NCBI GenBank assembly: GCA_035221665.1
Contig: CM069149.1
Coordinates: forward strand, 43,400,001-43,464,000
Direction of reading: 5' to 3'
DNA length: 64,000 nt
Source: Okamejei kenojei
Lineage: Eukaryota
Below, one piece after another: positions 3,973-61,899 of the stretch. Position 1 is the stretch's first letter; each line of letters starts with the position of its first letter. Both the position numbers and the translations under genes were made by a program. The notes under the pieces are model-generated. The model was not told the DNA's origin. It saw only the letters and a list, made by a program, of their open reading frames with translations, and searched no databases.

Positions 3973-4696
3973 CAGAACAGAGGACAGAAAGGGATCGGGT
4001 GGCCAATAGCCAGCAAAGCAGTAGGCAGGTAGTGCAGGAGTCCCCTGCGGTCATCTCCCTCCTAAACAAGTATACCATTTTGGATACTGTTGAGGGAGAT
4101 GGCTCACCAGGGGAATGCAGCAGCAGCCAAGTTAATGGCACCATGGATGGCTCTGCAGCACATGAGGGGGGGAAAAAAGAGGGGAATGGCAATAGTAATA
4201 GGGGATTCAATTGTCAGGGGAATAGATAGGCGTTTCTGCGGCCGCAAACGAGACTCCAGGATGGTATATTGCCTCCCTGGTGCAAGGGTCAGGGATGTCA
4301 CTGAACAGCTGCAGAACATTCTGGAGGGGGAGGGTGAACAGCCAGTTGTCGTGGTGCATATTGGCACCAACGATATAGGTAAAAAAAAGGAATGAGGTCC
4401 TACAAGGTGAATTGAGGGAGCTAGGAGATAAACTTAAAAGTAGGACCTCAAAGGTAATAATCTCTGGATTATTACCAGTCCCACGGGCCAGTCAGAGTAG
4501 AAATAGGAGGATATTGCAGATGAATACGTGGCTTGAAAAATGGTGCAAGGGGGAGGGATTAAAATTTTTAGGGCACTGGAACCATTTCTGGGGGAGGTGG
4601 GACTAGTACAAACAGGACGGTCTGTACCTGGGCTGGAATGGAACCAATGTCCTTGAGGGAGTGTTTGCTAGTGCTGTCGGGGAGGATTTAAACTAA
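3973..4696 (+). pseudogene. CR1 ORF1, SGNH/GDSL esterase domain (disrupted)
   Basis: Motifs IVIGDSIVRG, CLPGARVRDV, VVVHIGTNDI and DGLYL (normally DGLHL). Frameshifts at the homopolymer runs near 4170 and 4385, premature TAG at 4604-4606, terminal TAA at 4694-4696. Confidence 0.85.
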
Positions 4697-7672
4697 TGTG
4701 GCAGGGGGATGCGTACAAGAGCAGAGAGGCAGTTGGGTGTAAAACGAGGGTAGAAGCAATAGGGAGCAAGGTGAAAAGTAAAAGTGGCAGGCAAACAAAA
4801 CCAGGGCAAAAATCAAAAAGGGCCACTTTTCAACATAATTGTATAAGGGGTAAGAGCATTGTAAAAACAAGCCTGAAGGCTTTGTGTCTCAATGCAAGGA
4901 GTATTCGTAATAAGGTGGATGAGTTGAACGTGCAGATAGCTATTAATGATTATGATATAGTTGGGATCATGGAGACATGGCTCCAGGGTGACCAAGGCTG
5001 GGAGCTGAATATCCAGGGATATTCAATATTCAGGAGGGATAGAGAGAAAGGAAAAGGAGGTGGGGTAGCGTTGCTGGTTAGAGAGGAGATTAACGCAATG
5101 GAAAGGAAGGACATTAGCTTGGAGGATGTTGGAATCGGTATGGGTAGAGCTGCGAAACACTAAAGAGCAGAAAACTCTGGTGGGTGTTGTGTACAGGCCA
5201 CCTAACAGTAGTAGTGAAGTTGGGGATGGTATCAAACAGGAAATTAGTAATGCGTGCGACAAAGGCAAAACAGTTATAATGGGCGACTTCAATCTACATA
5301 TAGATTGGGTGAATCAAATCGGCAGGGGCACTAAGGAAGAGGATTTTTTGGAATGTATGCGGGATAGTTATCTAAATCAACATGTAGAGGAACCAACGAG
5401 AGAGCAGGTTATTTTAGATTGGGTATTGAGTAATGAGGAAGGGGTAGTTAGCAGTCTTGTTGTACGTGCCCCCTTGGGCAAGAGTGACCATAATATGGTC
5501 GAGTTCTTCATTAGGATGGAGAGTGACATTGTTAATTCAGAAACAATGGTTCTGAACTTAAAGAAAGGTAACTTTGAGGGTATGAGATGTGAATTGGCCA
5601 AGATTGACTGGCAATCAATTCTAAAAGAGTTGACGGTGGATACGCAATGGAAGACATTTAAAGACTGCATGGTTGAACTACAAAAATTGTTCATCCCAGT
5701 TTGGCAAAAGAATAAATCAGGGAAGGTAGTGCATCCGTGGATAACAAGGGAAATCAGGGATAGTATCAAAGCAAAGGATGATGCATACAAAGTAGCTAGA
5801 AAAAGAAGCATACCAGAGGACTGGGAGAAATTCAGAGACCAGCAGAGCAGGACAAAGGGCTTAATTAGGAAAGGAAAAATAGATGATGAAAAACTGGCAG
5901 GGAACATAAAAACTGACTGCAAATGTTTTTATAGATATGTGAAGAGAAAGAGATTAGTTAAAACAAATGTAGGTCTCTTGCAGTCAGAAACAGGTGAGTT
6001 GATCATGGGGAACAAGGATATGGCGAACCAATTGAATAACTACTTTGGTTCCGTCTTCACAAAGGAAGACATAAATAATCTGCCGGAAATAGGAGGGGAC
6101 CGCGGGTCAAAGGAGGAATTGAGTGAAATCCAGGTTAGTCGGGAAGTGGTGTTGGGTAAATTGAATGGATTAAAGGCCGATAAATCCCCAGGGCCAGATA
6201 GGCTGCATCCCAGAGTACTTAAGGAAGTAGCTCCGGAAATGGTGGATGCATTAGTGATAATCTTTCAAAACTCTTTAGATTCTGGAGTAGTTCCTGAGGA
6301 TTGGCGGGTAGCAAACGTAACTCCTCTTTTTAAGAAGGGAGAGAGGGAGAAAACAGGGAATTACAGACCAGTTAGTCTAACATTGGTAGTGGGGAAACTG
6401 CTAGAGTCAGTTATTAAAGATGGGATAGCAGCACATTTGGAAAGTGGTGAAATCATTGGACAAAGTCAGCATGGATTTACGAAAGGTAAATCATGTCTGA
6501 CGAATCTTGTGGAATTTTTCGAGGATGTAACCAGTAGCGTGGATAGGGGAGAACCAATAGATGTGGTGTACCTGGACTTCCAGAAGGCTTTCGACAAGGT
6601 CCCACATAAGAGATTAGTATACAAACTTAAAGCATACGGCATTGGGGGTTCAGTATTGATGTGGATAGAGAACTGGCTGGCAAACAGGAAGCAAAGAGTA
6701 GGAGTAAACGGGTCCTTTTCACAATGGCAGGCAGTGACTAGTGGGGTACCACAAGGGTCCGTGCTGGGACCCCAGTTATTTACAATATACATTGATGATC
6801 TGGATGAGGGAATTGAAGGCAATATCTCCAAGTTTGCGGATGACACTAAGCTGGGGGGCAATGTTAGCTGTGAGGAGGATGCTAGGAGACTGCAAGGTGA
6901 CTTAGATAGGCTGGGTGAGTGGGCAAATGTTTGGCAGATGCAGTATAATGTGGATAAATGTGAGGTTATCCACTTTGGTGGCAAAAACAGGAAAGCAGAC
7001 TATTATCTAAATGGTGGCCGATTAAGAAAAGGGGCGATGCAGCGCGACCTGGGTGTCATGGTACACCAGTCATTGAAAGTAGGCATGCAGGTGCAGCAGG
7101 CAGTGAAGAAAGCGAATGGTATGTTAGCTTTCATAGCAAAAGGATTTGAGTGTAGGAGCAGGGAGGTTCTACTTCAGTTGCATAGGGTCTTAGTGAGACC
7201 ACACCTGGAGTATTCCGTACAGTTCTGGTCCCCAAATCTGAGGAAGGACATTATTGCCATAGAGGGAGTGCAGAGAAGGTTCACCAGACTGATTCCTGGG
7301 ATGTCAGGACTGTCTTATGAAGAAAGACTGGATAGACTCGGTTTATACACTCTAGAATTTAGGAGCTTGAGAGGGGATCTTATAGAAACTGACAAAATTC
7401 TTAAGGGGTTGGACAGGCAAGATGCAGGAAGATTGTTCCCGATGTTGGGGAGGTCCAGGACAAGGGGTCACCCCTTAAGGATAAGGGGGAAATCCTTTAG
7501 GACCGAGATGAGAAGGACTTTTTTCACGCAGAGAGTGGTGGGTCTCTGGAACTCTTTGCCACAGAGGGTAGTGGAGGCCAGTTCATTGGCTATATTTAAG
7601 AGGGAGTTAGATGTGGCCCTTATGGCTAGGGGGATCAGAGGGTATGGAGAGAAGGCAGGTAAGAGACACTGA
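4696..7672 (+). pseudogene. CR1 ORF2, apurinic endonuclease plus reverse transcriptase, one frameshift near 5130
   Basis: APE motifs (CLNARSIRNK, ETWL, GGGVALLV, GVVYRPP, MGDFN, SDHN) and RT motifs (NYRPVSLT, LDFQKAFDKV, GVPQGSVLGP, FADD). The 155-aa and 848-aa ORFs join if one T is removed from gatgttggaatcg. Confidence 0.92.
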
Positions 7673-12932: not shown

Positions 12933-13739
12933 TTATCAGTCGCTATCCTGCCAATGTCAGGTACTGGTCAATGCATCTGTTACTCAGCTGCCAACACATT
13001 GATCAAGATTTATTTTTAACTTCACACCTTCATGTAGTTTGCGTATGGAGTGCACTCACCTCCTCACCTGGCATGAGTGTCAGCCACATCACACAAGTAC
13101 CTTCAAGACCCTCACTAATAAAGCTCCCTCTGGCTTGCAGAACAAGGGGCATACAACTCGAAAGGGCAGCACGGGCAGCCAACCAGCAGAGCAGATGTAT
13201 CTCGACCCATGGTGGAGAAAATGCTCATTAACACCAGAGTGCCAACTACTAAATCTCATGTAAATGCCAGCAACAGCAATTATACTATCTTCATATCTAG
13301 TCCTCCGTTTTATATCCCATTTCTCCTTTATCCCATAACAAAGCACTAGTTCTTCAAGGAAAGAAATTAGTCATTCCGGCACAACCTTGGACATTTGATC
13401 TACATGGACGTGTTGGGCCAAAGGATCTGTTTCCATGCTGCATGGCTGTATGACTCAATGACTCTCTTTGCGACTCCAGACTAACATTCCAGCACATTAC
13501 AGTGAACCCTCATTATAATGGAGGACCACGGATGGAGCGGGGGGGGAGATGGGGTCTGTTATTGCTGATAGTCCATTGTAATCAAGTAAGGTATTATCAT
13601 TGAATGTAGTTGAAACAAAGAACTGCAGATGATGGTTAATCAACAACAGGACGCAAAGTACTGGAGTAACTCAGTGGGTCAGGCAGCACCACTGGAGAAC
13701 AGTCTGCTGAGTTACTCTAGCACTTTGTGTGATTTCACC

Positions 13740-14010
13740 TTAAAACTAGGCACCAATGCCGCTGGTCTGCACCAACAAGCTCTTCTTCACCCACCGCACG
13801 GTCCAGTTCACATGGAGGTTGTTGCAGCTCACGTTGTAGCCCCTGGCCAGCAGCGTTTTCTTCAGGCCGCTGCCAATGACAGGACATGCTCAGTCAGCCT
13901 GGGGCTCCCTCCCCTCTCATCAGCTGCCATTTCTTCCTGTAGGCCGTCGCTTTGTCTGCTCCCTCCTCTACCGCCGCCTCCTCCTCCTTCTCCCCCGCAG
14001 ACGCCGGCAT
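13740..14010 (-). pseudogene. Linker histone H1-like fragment (copy A)
   Basis: MPASAGEKEEEAAVEEGADKATAYRKK..., PRLTEHVLSLAA/LKKTLLARGYNVSCNNLHVNWTVRWVKKSLLVQTSGIGA, compared with the H1 globular domain [40 protein letters not shown]. Confidence 0.8.
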
Positions 14011-14089
14011 CTTCCAAGGTGGAGTATGGTGGCTACTCTGGGGGAGAAGGAGGAGGATGTGGAGGTGTGGGGGTGGGGGAAGAGTACGC

Positions 14090-14370
14090 GTGGACAGAAC
14101 TATAGGAGGAGGAGCAGGTAGTGGTGTAAAAGGGAGCAGACAAAGCAACAGCCAACAGAAAGAAGCAGCAGCTGGTGAAAGGGCAGGGATCCCCACAGTG
14201 ACCAAGCATGTCCTATCAGTGGTGGCGGCCTGAAGAAATAGCTGTCCCCTGGGGGTACAACGTGAACCGCAACAACGGCTGCGTCAACTGTACCGTGCGA
14301 TTGGGGAAGAAGGGGGTAATGTTGGAAGCCGGGGCTGTAAGCTTCCAGGGAGCTGGTGCGAACCGGAGGA
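14090..14370 (+). pseudogene. Linker histone H1-like fragment (copy B, inverted)
   Basis: EEEQVVV*KGADKATANRKKQQ..., PTVTKHVLSVVAA/LKK*LSPG.YNVNRNNGCVNCTVRLGKKG...ELVRTGG; same GCGGCC|TGAAG deletion junction as copy A. Confidence 0.75.
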
Positions 14371-15224
14371 GGTGTCCGCTATAACTGAAATCTGTTATAA
14401 AGGGTCCGTTAAAACTATGGTTTACTGTATTTTGTTTCCATCTAACTATTCTCTGAAAAAGTTGAAGGGCAATTAGAAATTACTGATAAATGACGGGTTT
14501 GCGAGTGATGGCCACATCTAGTGAATACATAAAATGTGACTTTTAGCAAAGGTGGAAAAAAAAGTTATTGTGGTCGCCAGCTTGCACATATTCACTGACA
14601 AGATGCTACTAAAGACTCTGATGGGAACAACAGAAAACTGATGAATTTGCAATGATAAAATGCTATTGAATTGCCACGGCTGCCTGAAAGTCTGTGTGCA
14701 ATGCCAAGTAAAACGGAGAAATCCTCACTAAACTTTACACTGGGTTTTGAGCAGAAGCTGGAGTCCATTCTTCCTGGAATGAAGGTAATCCAGAAACTAC
14801 ATGGGCACAGTTGCAGAGGTAAACATTACACACCATTTGAGCACTGGAGTTTCAATTTCCATTGCAACACACCTCTGGATACTACAGGTTAATCTTGGAT
14901 CTCTGCTATCATTACAATGGACATATATTAAAAATGTTATGCTTTTGCTTGCTTGGGAAAAGAGGTATTTGACAATCATGAACTCAAACCAAGCATGGGA
15001 ATCTGCGGCAGGAAAAGTGAAAAACATCCGCTCCGATGCCAAGATCATCAGCACCGAGGCTCTAATTGCACTGAATCAGCACTGAAGGGGAGGCCTCATT
15101 TTTTTGCATGGCCAACACCAGACTCTAAAAACATTCAATTTCAGGCTTCACGCAGCAAGATAATATCAGGTGGATAATGATGAGCATAATTCATAAACAT
15201 ATGCAAGAGCCCTCTTGAGAAAAC

Positions 15225-29640: not shown

Positions 29641-32498
29641 CTGGGATGAATTTAAAAAGACGTGCACACTGACAGCAAGAGATTTTTGCATCTGGGATTG
29701 GATTGTTTCTTACATTCTTTGTGGGTGAACTCAGATTGCAAGCAGCTGAATGTGAGATTTATGGTTAAGGCTTAGATTATTGTATCAGATTGTTCCAACT
29801 TGTTTAACCATTTACATACAGGACTGCGTGATGATTCAGTTAGATAACACCAGAGAGTAGTACAAATGGCTACAGATCTCCCATTGATGAAAATAATTTA
29901 ACTTACTTGCAGCAAGGCAAATGGCAAATTATGTGATGACATGCTTCAATATTAACTTCATATGTCCTTGATTTACTTAAAATTAAAAGGGTTATTTTCA
30001 AAATCTTTTGTCATGCAGAGAATGGGAATAATTGTTGTCTTTACTCCAGGAATTAGATATGTCAAACGAAGAAATAAAAACGGTAAGTACTTGAACTATC
30101 CAGCAAATCAGGCAGCATTATGTAGAACAGGAAACAGTTAACGTTTTTAGTTAATGATCTTTCATAGGAACTGGAGAAGTGAGAAAACAAAGGACTTTTA
30201 AGTTGCAGAGAGGGAGAGACAGAGTGCATGCAACAGAAATAATATGCTGAAACTGCAAAAGGCACACAGGTCCAGCATGTTCTTTTGATTTTCTTATTCT
30301 TACTTTCTCTCTCACTGCCCTCATTCACAAAGCATTGTGTCACCTGGGTAGCCATGATCCCACCCTATTAGTAACATTACTTTTGATCACCACCCATCCC
30401 CCTTTTTGCAATTTAAAACACACTTGTTTTCTCACGTAACAAAATCATTAAATGCTGGAAACACTCAGCAGGTCAGGCAGCACCTGTGGAAAGAGAAACA
30501 GATGCTGCCTAACTTGCCGAGTGAGACCTCAGTGGTAAGAAGGCTTCATGTGGCAGATCACTGAAGACACTGATAGCCTTTGCCAAGAGGAAAGGCAGGG
30601 GGCAGAGCCTCATCTCCTCAGAAAATCTGGAAGGCCTTGCAATAGATTTCAAATGTCTCCAATCTTCACATAATTTCAATAATTTTTGATTGCTTTATAT
30701 ATTTGAAAATAATAAAAATTATGAAAGCACTAAACAGTAAAAATATTGAAATAAAGTGAAAAAGTATGACATTAATGAATAACCAAATGTGTATATTCCC
30801 ATCTAATCTACAGGACCAGAATTTTCAAGAGTGGTGGATTTGCACAATTCCAGGTCTCACTTTGCTTAAAACACTCAAGCCCTGGATAGCCATTTCCTTT
30901 TGGGACTGTGTAACATTTGTACAAAGTCTTGATTGGACTCCATTCAATTTGGGCACTGACTTTCAGGAAGGTGCCATTGAATGCAGATTTCCATGTTTCA
31001 ACCAGTGTCCTCAGAATCATATGGGATGGTAGTAAAAATTAGGTTTGTGTTCCTTCAGTATAGAAATGAAGGGTCATTGAAACAAGGTGTGCAAAATCAT
31101 TCAGCTAGGTAGATGCAGAGAAGCAACTTCCACCACATATCAAAAGGACATCACCTCAAAACAATGCTTGGACCATTTGGGATTAAACAACAAAGTACAT
31201 TTTCATGTGAAGTATTTGAGTGAACAGAATCAAGCTTTCACCTGCTGCCATTTATTCTTTGCTCCCTCTGAATCTCCAAATTTAGCATTTGTGTTTGACT
31301 ATCGCCATACATTAACAATTCAAGTGCAAGTGTAAGACAAAAAAACCCCACAATTTTGAAGAAGGGTCCTGACACGAAACATCACCCATCCCTTTTCTAC
31401 AGAAATGCTGCCTGACCCGCTGAGTTACTCCAGCACTTTATGTCTATCTTCAATACAATTTGACAGATTAGTTTGGCTTGGCTGAAATGGTTTCAAGATC
31501 TAGGGGCCATCATCCACTCTGTATGGTACCAACATTATATTCCTTTAGTATAGCCTTTAGTATTGCCTGATACTTGTTATTTTAACCATAGCTTATGGGG
31601 AAAGCCACCTTACAGGTCTGCTGACAAGCAGTGATGGATATAACTACAACAAGCTAACATGTTTTACAGTTACAGAGACTGCAGATGCTGGAATCTGGAG
31701 CAAATTAACAAACTGTCAGAGGAACTTAGTGGATAAGGTGCAACTATGGAGAGAAATGAACAGTCAACGTTTTGATTAGAGACCCTTCACTTCATCATCA
31801 TCCATGTGAAGGGTCTCAACATAAAAGATTGACTGTCAGGTCCTCTCCACAAATTATCTCTAGTGGGTTCAAAGGGCTACATCACCCACCATTCCTCTAA
31901 CTGTGGTGACAAGAAACTGCAGGTGCTGGAATCTTGAGCAAAATCTGAAGTAGGGTCCCTCTATAGATGCTGCCTGACCTGCTACCTTCCTCCAACATTA
32001 TTAGACGAAGGCAGCAGGTCAGGCAGCATCTATGGAGGGACCTTACTTCAGATTGACGAAGGAAATGAAAGCTGGAAAAGAGAGGACGGAGCAAGCTAGG
32101 CGAGGTGGCAGGGGTAGATTAAATGACAAAAGCTAGAAGTGAAATGGAGTCAAACTTTGTCAGATGAGTTATGAAATGTAAAGTCCGGACAGGGATAAGA
32201 GTAGAATAGGATAAAAGGGTGGGGAAAGAGGGGAAACACAAACATATTGAAAGTCAGGATCACTGACCTTGTCACAAGTCACTGTTTTAAGCCTTAAAAA
32301 TAAATAATCTTTCATTTAAAAAAAATTCAAACAAAAGATACACAACATAATGACCATATTTTATAACCACTAACACCAGTAAGTTCCAATCCATTCGTGC
32401 AGATTAATCTGCATATGTGCAGCAACTTCCAGTGACTTTGCACAAGCAGTAACATTTGGAAAATGCTGTCTGAGATTGGATCTTCTTGATAAACTCAC

Positions 32499-40780: not shown

Positions 40781-41373
40781 CAATGCAAGCCTTTGGCTAA
40801 ACCAAACTCTGATTACTTATGGCACTATGAGAGAAATATATAAAATTCCTTGGAAGTACATGAAACAGAATGACTGGTAAGGAACTTTGCAGCTGGCTGG
40901 CCTGGGATTGATGAGCGGCTGTATAGTCCAGTGAACAAGGGATACTGACTTGGTTAGGACTATCTGACCCAAAGGGTTGGAATGAGCAAAACCTACAACC
41001 CCAATGGATAAGAGACAGGTGTCAGAGGCAGCACATGAGATATGCTGGTTGGTATGACTAAATACTGGGGTACAGACATTGGAGGGATAGTCACAGAGAC
41101 TGCAGATCTATTGAGGATATTACAGACTGCAGATCTATTGAGGATATTACATCAGGTCATTTCACAAGACTTGGTGACTGTTTTAAAAAATGCAATTGTT
41201 GTCACCAATACAGAACAACATTCAAACTTGGTGTCAAGTTTAAACCAGCGAAAAAACACAACTTCTCTGCTTTTGCAACATTGTCAAGAGGTTTGCAAGA
41301 CTCAAACCAAGCATACAGCTTGGACACCAGTTACCCGAATTCTACTCTATGCTTCAGAGATTTGAACTATCTA

Positions 41374-43018
41374 CAGTACCCTCCTTAATGTTTGGGACAA
41401 AGACCCATCATTTATTTATTTGCCTCTGTACTCCACGATTTAAGATTTGGAATAGTAAAAAAATCACATGTGGTTACAGTGCACATTGTCAGATTTTAAT
41501 AAAGGCAATGTTTTTCCATTTTGGTTTCACCATGTAGAAATTACAGCAGTGTTTATACATAATTCCCCCATTTCAGGGCACCATAACGTTTGGGACACAG
41601 CAATGTCATGTAAATTAAAATTGTGGTGTTTAGTATTTTGTTGCATATCCTTTGCATGCAATGACTGCTTGAAGCCTGCGATTCATGGACATCACCAGTT
41701 GCTGGGTGCCTTCTCTGGTGATGCGCTGCCAGGCCTGTATAGCAGCCATCTTTAGCTTATGTATGTTTTGGGGGCTAGTCCCCTTCAGTTTTCATCTTCA
41801 GCATATAAAAAGGCATGCGCAATTGTGTTCAGATCAGGTGATTGACTTGGCCACTCAAGAAATGACCATTTTTTAGCTTTGAAAAACTTATTTGTTGCTT
41901 TAACATTATATTTGGGATTATTGTTTTGCTGTAGAATGAACCGCCTGCCAATGAGGTTTGAGGCATTTGTTTGAACTTGAGCAGATAGGATGTGTCTATA
42001 CACTTCAGAATTCATTATGCTACTACCATCAGCAGTTGAATCATCAATGCAGATAAGTGAGCCAGTACCTTCAGCAGCCATACATGCCCAGGCCATAATA
42101 CCCCCACCAACGTGTTTCACAGATGAGGTGGTACGCTTTGGATCTTGGGCAGTTCCTTCTCCCCTTCATTCTTTGCTCTTGCCATCATTCTGATATGTTA
42201 ATCTGCGTCTCATCTGCCCACAAGACCTTTTTCCAGAACTGTGGTTGCTCTTTTAAGTACTTCTTGGCAAACTGTAACCTGGCTATCATATTTTTGTAGC
42301 TAACCAGTGGTTTGCATCTTGCAGTGTAGCTTCTGTATTTCTGTTCATGACGTCTTCTGCAGACCGTGGTCATTGACAAATCCACACCTGAATAGTGTTT
42401 CTGATCTGCCAGACAGGTGTTTGGGTTTCTTTCTTTATTATGGAGAGAATTTTTCTGTCATCAGCTGTGGAGGTCTTCCTTGGCCTGCCAGTCCCTTTGC
42501 AATTTGTAAGTTCACCAGTTATTTTTTTCTTCTTAATGATGTTCCAAACAGTTGATTTTGGTAAGCCTAAGGTGTGGCTGATGTCTCTAACAGTTTTACT
42601 CTTATTTCTCAGTCTCATAATGACTTATTTGACTTTCGTTGGCACAACTTTGGTCCTCATGTTGATAGACAGCAATAAAAGTTTCCAAAGGTGATGGAAA
42701 GACTGGAGGAGAGACTAGGTTCTGAGAGCTCTCTTATACCTGCATTAAGGAGGCAATTATTACACATCTGAGCAAATACAAACACCTGTGAAGCCATGTG
42801 TCCCAAACATTATGGTGCCCTGAAATGGGTGGACGATGTATAAACACAACTGTAATTTCTACATGGTGAAACCAAAATGTAGAAAAATGGCCTTTATTAA
42901 AATCTGACAATGTGCACTTTAACCACGTGATTTTTTATTTTACAAATCTCAAATTGTGGAATACAGAGGCAAATAAATAAATGATGGGTCTTTGTCCCAA
43001 ACATTATGGGGGGAACTG
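41374..43018 (-). mobile_element. Full-length Tc1-family transposon of IR/DR type (1645 bp)
   Basis: TA TSD at 41372-41373 and 43019-43020; TIRs of about 225 bp starting CAGT, each with two GTTTGGGACA direct repeats. Confidence 0.95.
41630..42660 (-). pseudogene. Tc1 DD34E transposase (inactivated)
   Basis: HTH VRDISHTLGLPKSTVWNIIKK, GRPRKT, KVLWADETQIN, KHVGGGIMAW, ILQQNNNPKY (DND lost), WPSQSPDLNTIAH (E lost); stops and frameshifts. Confidence 0.93.
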
Positions 43019-44938
43019 TATAGCAGTCACCGGAGGTACCGACACCACCACTTTAAAATCATCCAAACTGATTTGCGGAGAAGTGAACCAAAATTCAGAA
43101 TTCTCTCCCAAGCTAACAGGCTCACATCAGAGCTCTCAATAACCTGGGAGGCCACAACAACTATGTGCCTTTCAATACAACCTTTCCCACCCAAAAGATC
43201 ATTCAGGCAAGCCATACTAAGAAAGACAAAAAATGTGAAAGAAAATAAATTAAAAAAGAACATTCCATGCAACATTACTATCAAAGCCCCATTTTAAAAA
43301 AAGTTGCAATATCCAAACCAATTAATTGGAGTCCGTGAACACTTGTAGGAGCATTCAGAAAAAAACACCAAGCAGCTATTCAGAAGGAGTCTTCAATGGA
43401 GTAATGGAGGGTAAGCAGAAATGGCTGAAGAAGCTTTTTAGTCTCACACAACCTTATCCCATCAGGCACCTCATGCCCCACCAGTGGAAGAGTCCATTGG
43501 TACCACATTACCCACATCAGAACCCACCCAATCGTAGTGAAACAAATCCCCCTTGACTCCAAGGAAATGTCTTATTATTGTACTGACATGCTAGAAACAA
43601 GAATGGGCAATCCCACTGAATGTATTGGTTGAAGATTGAAATATTTTATGCTTCCAGTCCTGCAATGATTAGTTTTTGTATTACGCTGCTCTCCTAATGA
43701 TATACGTTTAAGGATTCTGACTTATTACATGTACCAATAATGAAAGTCTCACACTGAAAATATCAACATGAACCAAGTTAAATATCCCAACACATTAAAT
43801 GTAACAGCTAAATCATACTGTGCCAAGAACAATCAACCACACCCAAACATTAACACCACAGACTTGCAGGATAGAAACATCAACAAATTATGCCTTATGA
43901 CTTTGCAATTAATTAACTATCCAAGAAAACTCTCTCTGCTATGCTTGGAGACCAAACACCAATGATAAATATGCAGGGTTAATTCTGGGTCTTGTTTAAT
44001 CATTGACAAAGACTTTATTTAGAGTCAAAAGCTGGTTGCAGTTTGCTGAACTGAGCAAACAAAAATTCAAACACAACTTGGGTGATCAGGCTTAGTAGAA
44101 ACATTATCAAGATTCACAGTTCACTTATGAATATACAGTACATGTCAACCTAGAAAACAAGCAATAGCTGACAACTCAATGGTGATCCTGACCATAAGCC
44201 TCCAAAAGGAAAAAAGTAGTCACAGGAGCTTTATAGTTTCAACTGTGAAATGCACACTATTCCTCATTTAAATTGGATAAATAAATATAAGTATTTGGAA
44301 GACAGGTGAAGAAATATCAATGTTGGAGATATAATATTTATTTTTGTTGGGTCCAGATGATGCAAGTGAAGGATCAAGTTAAATTAATCTGGATGGAAAG
44401 TATTAGGACTCCTTTCTTCATATGCCAAAAGCCAGAATTCAGTGGTTATAGTCATAATTTCAATATATTGGCCCCTGCTGAGAATGGAATGGTTCCAAGT
44501 AGCAACACAATTCAGGTAGAATAGTGTTGGTGGGAGAGTGTCCTGGGACACATAATCTGCTCGATGCCAAAACATTGAGTCATTATAAATGGTTTACGAT
44601 GATTGGCTGCCACTTGTAAATCACTTATAAATGTTCGGGGGTCAGAGGATCTGTAGAGGCACACCTTATTTGTTCTAGAATTTAATACGCCTACTTGATG
44701 ACCACTATTAACTGTATATTAAAAACTCAGTTTTGTGCTTCTGCGCTGTAACTCGAGTGGTCTCAATTTAGAATGACATACATTGAAGGGTGTATAATAC
44801 AAAGCACTATTGCCTTGGAGTTATATTTAATCTGTGTTTTAATATATTGTTCCCCTTCTTTTCATAGAAGTTTAACAATTTTAGGCACTTGACAAATTAT
44901 AGGCCAATAAATGAATGGTAGCAGGGATTGAATTAATA

Positions 44939-61210: not shown

Positions 61211-61899
61211 CTACCAATCAACATGCCTTGGGGAAATTTATAATTAGAACAACGTCAGTCAAAAGTAAAGTTAAGAAATTAAACGGTGATAAAAATGTGG
61301 AAGTCTGTTCCAGGTTAGCTGTTGATTTAAAACCTAAGATTGTTTAATAACATTTTAAGGAATAAATAGAAAAGTAGGAAAAATTGAGCTAAGCTCACTG
61401 AATGCTAAAAACAAATCTCGGTTAAATAGCCTCATCCTGTTCTATCCTGTAACTCGCTTTCTCATTCTGAAATATTTATCTTATTGTTCAGGTAATTTTG
61501 AAACGTTTACAGGAAATTAACGGTAGGTAGACACAACATGCTGGAGTAACTCAGCGGGACAGGCAGCGTCTCTAGAGAGAAGGAATGGGTAACGTCTCGG
61601 GTCGAGACCCTTCTTCAGACTGATGTAAATGAACGATATTTTTGCAATATTTCAAAATGCATTCGATTTGGATTAATAAAATATGGTGTATGCAGAATAA
61701 TCCCTGCTTTTAGGAGAATGTGTCCGTGTATTTTTTTAAACGTTTTAAATAAACAGCTCAAACAAAACACAGCTATTTTTAATTAAGCTATTACGTTTAC
61801 ACAACAAAAATGCATTTTTTTTTTAAATGGACCGCTTAAAATTAATTACTCTCTGCATTAAATATGCCATTTTTTCGATGTGGGTTCGGCAGTTTACAG

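Follow-up and report, generated by a model that had tools for sequence, protein, structure and literature searches.

The element at positions 13500..14427 of the window, i.e. the whole stretch of 64,000 nucleotides of skate DNA that was analysed, is very probably a decayed copy of a TA-flanked non-autonomous transposon family, in which a palindrome of linker histone H1 sequence was captured in a different terminal shell, deleted, folded back, swapped into the present shell and then multiplied in a burst. The element works like a multicopy Pack-TIR of the Tc1/mariner superfamily and agrees with such elements in the respects tested, i.e. its cargo is non-transposon host sequence, the parental type of this cargo was identified by orthology to the H1 protein P0011, and the same cargo is present at distinct sites. 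The family also has the features of Tc1/mariner non-autonomous elements (MITEs): a TA target, short terminal inverted repeats (TIRs) at many loci, and no transposase capacity.

The ends of the element lie exactly where an earlier note on this DNA had placed them, with a TA at 13498..13499, a CAGT-starting TIR from 13500, a ...TTTACTG end at 14427 and a second TA at 14428..14429. Across the family, TA was found at 29/39 scored left ends and 38/50 scored right ends, and the non-TA ends in scored copies are mostly TG/CA. The left end of this shell (shell A; 13500..13607, + strand) comprises a TIR of ~25 bp and subterminal sequence, and is followed by a piece of a very abundant palindromic repeat (13608..13746). 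The long H1 arm (13747..14016, - strand) corresponds to donor codons ~7-113, up to ...SGIGA, and the short H1 arm (14017..14312, + strand), which includes a 59-bp tandem duplication (14045-14068 / 14104-14127), to donor codons ~6-106; both arms have the same deletions of ~13 nt and 34 nt. The fold-back centre (14011..14025) would derive from a donor micro-hairpin, CCAC-AAG-GTGG (codons N-H-K-V-E). The right end of shell A (14313..14427, + strand) consists of GC-rich filler, a subterminal repeat and the TIR.

The junction GCGGCC|TGAAG, which the earlier note had reported for both arms, is present at 13860..13870 on the - strand and at 14225..14235 on the + strand. The arms are inverted relative to each other (13782-13991 versus 14104-14312, 77-78% complementary), and the RNA fold of the element has z = -15.6 with 0/100 shuffles equally stable. 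The three long ORFs of the element had no Pfam hits, and tblastn with 20 transposase ORFs gave no match inside it. We conclude that the element codes for nothing.

The absence of a significant H1-domain match had been named in the earlier note as evidence against an H1 origin, and none of the four window fragments matched in Pfam; nevertheless, H1 identity was established by other comparisons. Window positions 13752-13889 (- strand) are identical to P0011 at 29/39 residues (pairwise E 9e-16), and over 145 nt the family consensus shares 87.6% identity with a host H1 gene, L043. This gene itself has a Linker_histone match at E 4e-14, and its homologues are skate and shark H1-like proteins. The shared N-terminus proposed for the two arms was correct in part: 'GADKATA.RKK' is in the true host frame (VDKATVDGKK in P0011), but the acidic 'EEE' is a glycine run read off-frame. 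The central ATG was considered as an H1 start and rejected, as it is out of frame and lies inside the codons for E-D-V-G-D. By contrast, the proposed loss of the SKERSGVS segment was borne out, in that the deleted piece is the equivalent part of P0011, T63-A73 (TKRRRGISLAA). This junction deletion is 34 nt long, frameshifting and present in 115/115 covered arms (55/55 left and 60/60 right), while a second deletion common to both arms removes ~13 nt. A search with the element-specific off-frame reading against predicted proteins of other species gave 3873 candidates, none of them at E <= 0.01.

The best donor match is P0011 (XP_078280407.1, 'histone H1.5-like' of Rhinoraja longicauda), with 47/52 amino acids identical. 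In a 52-column tree, cargo and P0011 group as sisters (bootstrap 86), and the clade of L043 and a further host paralogue, L046, stands apart from them (41/52); moreover, P0011 matches the cargo in the N-terminal tail as well as in the globular part. Relatives of P0011 occur in sharks and rays, and the donor is an elasmobranch H1 variant of the P0011 type. The parent gene that the earlier note proposed to look for is thus known by type, and only paralogues of it were found in the host assembly.

An intact P0011 orthologue was not found in the host assembly either by a family search (26 matches, 64/64 candidates scored) or by a protein search (150 of 1303 candidates scored), and the C-terminal half of P0011 gave 0/31 candidates. 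Nor was one present in C28:1.15-2.15 Mb, which has one 500-N gap and seven H1-like loci, three of them broken; beyond this interval, only 2.586-2.593 Mb was examined. Hence, the donor gene appears gone from the assembly in the sense of not found, its loss not being proven. The H1-like loci at C28:1.19-2.59 Mb (L036, L037, L043, L046, L064, L068 and L109) form a cluster of intronless H1 variants with basic tails, among which are degraded loci (L068, L109 and one at 1.194 Mb) and L064, whose numerous 1-bp frameshifts mark either a pseudogene or an error of assembly.

The earlier suggestion that the family had amplified was upheld. In a DNA search with the element, 40/40 scored loci matched, these being taken from 3095 first-look candidates, a number inflated by the abundant internal repeat. 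Both arms were present in 29/29 other fetched copies, which had been picked for their likeness to the whole window copy. Among 29 loci picked instead by the junction pattern, 18 had both arms, 23 had shell A ends, four belonged to a related family in another shell (family D, below) and two were unassigned. The junction pattern had 145 exact matches and the shell A TIR pattern 214, with 0 in both controls, and copies of the family of the window element (family A) have unrelated flanks and TA ends. From four match lists, 189 distinct H1-carrying loci were seen on 13 chromosomes, C1-C13. Recapture against the pattern list gave 743-1147 loci on C1-C13, with 8/58 independently found arms matching the junction pattern; a recapture estimate of 162 for C1-C13 was set aside, since it is below the 189 loci seen and came from two similarity-ranked lists. 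Genome-wide, a rough figure is ~600-1,700 H1-carrying loci of families A and D together, mostly A. After six duplicates were dropped, 76 copies were projected, of which 66 are A, seven D and three unassigned. On C35:5.6-8.6 Mb, L113-L115 and L126-L128 are six near-identical copies of one family A remnant, and the C35 copies were apparently multiplied by segmental duplication; similar pairs are present on C1.

Two loci found with the donor as query, L105 and L110, keep the segment that family A has deleted, and sit in a different TA-flanked shell (shell C). Shell C copies hold part of an H1 variant of the P0011 type, namely its TATA region, 5' UTR and ATG together with ~80 codons, and the shell C consensus, built from eight single-arm loci and L133, translates nearly identically to the N terminus of P0011. 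The captured promoter and the sequence upstream of the host gene L043 have the same CCGTCCGC...ATAAAAGCG...TCCAGTTTCGGCC layout, which argues for capture from DNA and not from mRNA. The intermediates comprise the eight single-arm loci, L133, L142 and L153. In L133, a single arm that reaches SGIGA already has the junction deletion, and the deleted single-arm stage rests on this one locus. With this single deleted arm and the deletion in 115/115 covered arms, the earlier proposal of a Pack-type capture of an H1-variant piece that was deleted before its inverted duplication is supported. The accompanying idea that capture took place in the window element's own TIR shell is not: the piece was probably captured in shell C, and the palindromic core probably moved into shell A later. 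In another shell C copy, L136, a ~31-bp unit of the H1 glycine-run region has expanded into a minisatellite (1000-1270).

In a search for family D, 40 of 276 candidates were scored; 29/30 fetched loci had an arm, 20/30 had both orientations and 0/30 had shell A ends. Family D consists of shell C ends with an inverted arm and a forward arm. In its consensus, the imperfect donor hairpin (codons N-H-K-V-E), which was read from the shell C consensus of nine loci and not from donor DNA, is a perfect 20-bp palindrome that replaces the ATG, and the short arm begins directly after this palindrome. We take this change to be what is known as quasi-palindrome correction by template switching. Downstream lies the abundant repeat, between two copies of a ~13-bp target.

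When 30 loci were chosen by their shell A TIR, 14 carried H1, seven were an H1-free sister MITE (L189, L191, L192, L194, L200, L202 and L212) and nine had other interiors or insertions. The sister MITE is ~620 bp long and shares positions 1-227 (90%) and 863-1000 (82%) of the family A consensus, i.e. the two ends of shell A; its shared 1-227 stretch ends inside the repeat that it has in common with family D. This points to family A as the sister's ends around a D core. The piece of this repeat at 13608..13746 would then mark the left exchange point, and the exact breakpoint falls in a ~50-nt stretch that is missing from the window copy at 13700. Moreover, in family D the hairpin is complete and the target duplication of the repeat is present in its two copies, and in family A one copy and a 5-nt remnant of the hairpin are left, which indicates the direction D to A. 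The sister MITE interior has GC-rich short repeats of its own and a GCAGGTAAG donor-like motif, and is possibly another captured CpG-island piece. Further shell A elements, L187, L190, L269 and L286, have other interiors (555-1270 bp), and the interior of shell A seems to have been replaced repeatedly.

We propose that the family arose in five steps. The first two are seen in the copies themselves: shell C holds the H1 TATA region, 5' UTR, ATG and ~80 codons, probably captured at the DNA level, and the junction deletion is present in a single arm reaching SGIGA, the stage represented by L133. Two template switches at the CCAC-AAG-GTGG quasi-palindrome (codons 4-8), as the anatomy of the junctions suggests, would have produced the fold-back inverted duplication of family D. 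The interior of a sister MITE would next have been replaced by the D core with one breakpoint in the repeat that both share; in the simplest case, a sister copy was excised and the gap was repaired from a D template, with priming in this repeat. Finally, family A underwent a transposition burst followed by neutral decay.

Two other accounts of the origin were weighed against these data. The cargo could be a processed H1 pseudogene that entered a MITE in a single event; 16/30 of the TIR-picked loci are without H1, and the H1 genes are intronless, so that introns cannot be used against this account. The same breakpoints, however, recur in hundreds of copies, and the earliest stage has a TATA region, which is upstream of the transcript, and has neither the 3' half nor a poly(A); the promoter-bearing shell C stage refutes a processed pseudogene, and we regard it as extremely unlikely. 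That the order was reversed or reticulate, with the palindrome arising in shell A and passing to shell C, or reaching both from a third locus, is also very unlikely. Families A and D are similar in age, i.e. 13.1% non-CpG K2P from the consensus for A (n = 66) and 13.8% divergence over the left 330 bp for D (n = 30), so that ages alone give no order, and diagnostic arm sites are mixed among copies; against this, the promoter, the undeleted stage and both target-duplication copies are found only in shell C.

The order from shell C through family D to family A thus being preferred, we turn to the fate of the cargo. Divergence at the three codon positions is 0.135/0.118/0.128, arms diverge by 12-13% and shell by 10-14%, and 35% of CpG is kept; the cargo is decaying neutrally and without coding constraint. 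Each of the other organisms compared (4/4) has the insertion of the window element at the corresponding site, with the right junction bridged in 4/4 and the left in 3/4, at 1.5-4.4% difference. Given the 13.1% divergence of the copies from their consensus, the burst is several times older than those splits. In 52 copies, mismatch was 20.1% between arms within a copy and 20.5% between copies (permutation p 0.056 for mismatch and 0.09 for shared changes), so that arm-to-arm gene conversion is at most a weak, non-significant trend. Uninterrupted pairing extends over at most 19 bp in the window copy and over at most 11-29 bp in 25 copies, as against 65 bp in the consensus, the arms of which agree at 221/226 aligned sites. 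Consensus 21-mers within one mismatch number 33 for L043 and 26 for L046; for neither of these surviving paralogues, the two that were compared, is there such a 21-mer in the window copy. Rfam gave 26 matches, all generic hairpins far below the gathering score. As to what marks a small-RNA hairpin locus, the long fold is present, and maintained pairing or sequence constraint was not observed. The silencing potential that these pairings predict is real for the young family and now largely gone; a small-RNA role today has no support, given the neutral decay, the lack of significant arm homogenisation and the lack of near-perfect 21-mers in the window copy, and any small-RNA silencing of the donor could only have been ancient.

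It is conceivable, and in our judgement unlikely, that the palindromes give, or once gave, rise to dsRNA and to small RNAs directed at the donor H1 variant, and that this helped to silence the donor gene and to lose it in this lineage. Young copies would have been near-perfect donor hairpins, as the consensus arms indicate, and in family D the hairpin lay downstream of a TATA region that came from the donor itself; moreover, no intact P0011 orthologue was found in the host, Rhinoraja keeps one, and an epigenetic conflict between transposon and donor has been reported in maize (bioRxiv 10.1101/777037). However, arms of the same copy are not more alike than arms across copies, the window copy has no near-perfect 21-mer for L043 or L046, redundancy among the H1-like loci of C28 simply explains the donor's loss, and the burst may be older than the lineage in which the donor gene was kept. 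The fullest form of this scenario, to which we likewise give little credence, is that a burst of about a thousand hairpins, some behind the donor TATA, turned germline small RNAs on the donor and drove its loss, with the H1 cluster being a capture hotspot. If true, it would be a vertebrate case of gene-capture epigenetic conflict.

Irrespective of the donor's fate, its cluster was a source of captured sequence more than once. At 9/28 different loci fetched, a third shell (shell B) encloses the promoter and 5' UTR of an L043/L046-type H1 paralogue together with its N-terminal half, and in 7/9 of these H1-carrying loci a TA-flanked TIR was seen on one side or on both; the nine include L062, L063 and L067 (C4:112.65 Mb, C26:30.55 Mb and C6:47.93 Mb). 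The captures in shells C and B were independent events that involved two paralogues of a single H1-variant cluster. Both captures start just upstream of the TATA box, and this common start point suggests an accessible GC-rich germline promoter.

The shell B TIR (<=5 mismatches) adjoins a DDE_1 transposase in 11/20 fetched DDE_1 loci, with both ends in five, and shell B is thus pogo/Tigger-derived. The shell C TIR matches that of shell B at 16/20 letters, and no transposase was found inside shell C ends. The shell A TIR was present at 0/20 fetched DDE_1 loci (of 45 matches), and there was no transposase in 25 further shell A loci, an absence that is expected for an old family. The label 'Tigger-like' given to the window element in the earlier note is, hence, borne out for shell B, the only shell in which it was tested positively, extends to shell C by inference, and is at most putative for shell A, to which the window element belongs. 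In common with pogo/Tigger-derived MITEs (DDE_1, PF03184), the family has a TA target and short CAG-starting TIRs; ordinary MITEs of this kind differ in having no host coding palindrome.

Plant Pack-MULEs have 9-bp targets and long TIRs. By contrast, the skate family has a TA target and ~25-bp TIRs of the Tc1/mariner type, resides in a vertebrate host and has a cross-talk potential that is read from sequence. Its likeness to the Pack-MULE and Pack-TYPE elements of plants and to their gene-capture epigenetic conflict (Muyle et al., bioRxiv 10.1101/777037) is that non-autonomous TIR elements amplify gene fragments with potential small-RNA cross-talk with the donor. Bat Helitrons (Thomas et al. 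2014, PMC4224331) are likewise vertebrate DNA transposons reported to have amplified host promoters, UTRs and exons; they differ in being rolling-circle elements without TIRs or TA duplications, and some of their cargo is described as being under purifying selection, whereas the skate cargo is not.

Multicopy gene capture by TIR transposons is reported to be very rare in vertebrates. Tan et al. 2021 (PMC8277862) describe 370 Pack-TIRs in 100 animal genomes, four of them multicopy in reference genomes (three in frog and one in alligator), plus the fly Ssk-FB4; the frog example that they give has three copies, and the words 'shark' and 'skate' do not occur in the main text. The skate family resembles these Pack-TIRs as described there in having host sequence between TIRs, re-transposition to distant sites, GC-rich cargo and a proposed template-switch origin (FoSTeST). 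It differs from the cases given there in its hundreds to about a thousand copies, its promoter plus coding cargo, the inverted duplication and the hand-over between two TIR families, and its amplification exceeds that of the vertebrate example published there by two to three orders of magnitude. A Tc1/mariner content of 3.28% in skate genomes versus 0.14% in sharks, with three rounds of expansion, has been reported (PMC12361510), and this expansion, as reported, fits the setting of the family.

In the literature searched, there was no account of a skate transposon that had captured H1, and the shells may sit in repeat databases as unnamed consensus sequences. What is new here is the size of the family, its coding cargo in palindromic form, the series of preserved stages including the hand-over, the two captures from one cluster and the missing donor. 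Since promoter capture, deletion, micro-hairpin fold-back and hand-over are all preserved as separate steps, the template-switch model is testable on sequence alone. Moreover, with two captures and an apparently lost donor, a presence/absence comparison among skates and rays could tell whether the palindromes cost the host a gene. In practice, the H1 copies are bound to be misannotated as H1 pseudogenes and to confound the mapping of H1 reads.

Elsewhere in the window, 52 of its 76 ORFs of >=90 aa were scanned for domains, and only LINE and Tc1 domains were above the cut-offs. The LINE, at 4672-7672, has an endonuclease and an 867-aa open frame with RVT_1, and the Tc1-type element, at 41372-43020, is bounded by long terminal inverted repeats and matches HTH_Tnp_Tc3_2 at 42188-42457. 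The palindromic repeat of 13608-13746 is extremely abundant and is also present at, e.g., 31357-31449, 31942-32054 and 61525-61617; its ~13-bp target duplication in family D suggests that it was moved by the machinery of LINEs and not in the manner of a DNA transposon.
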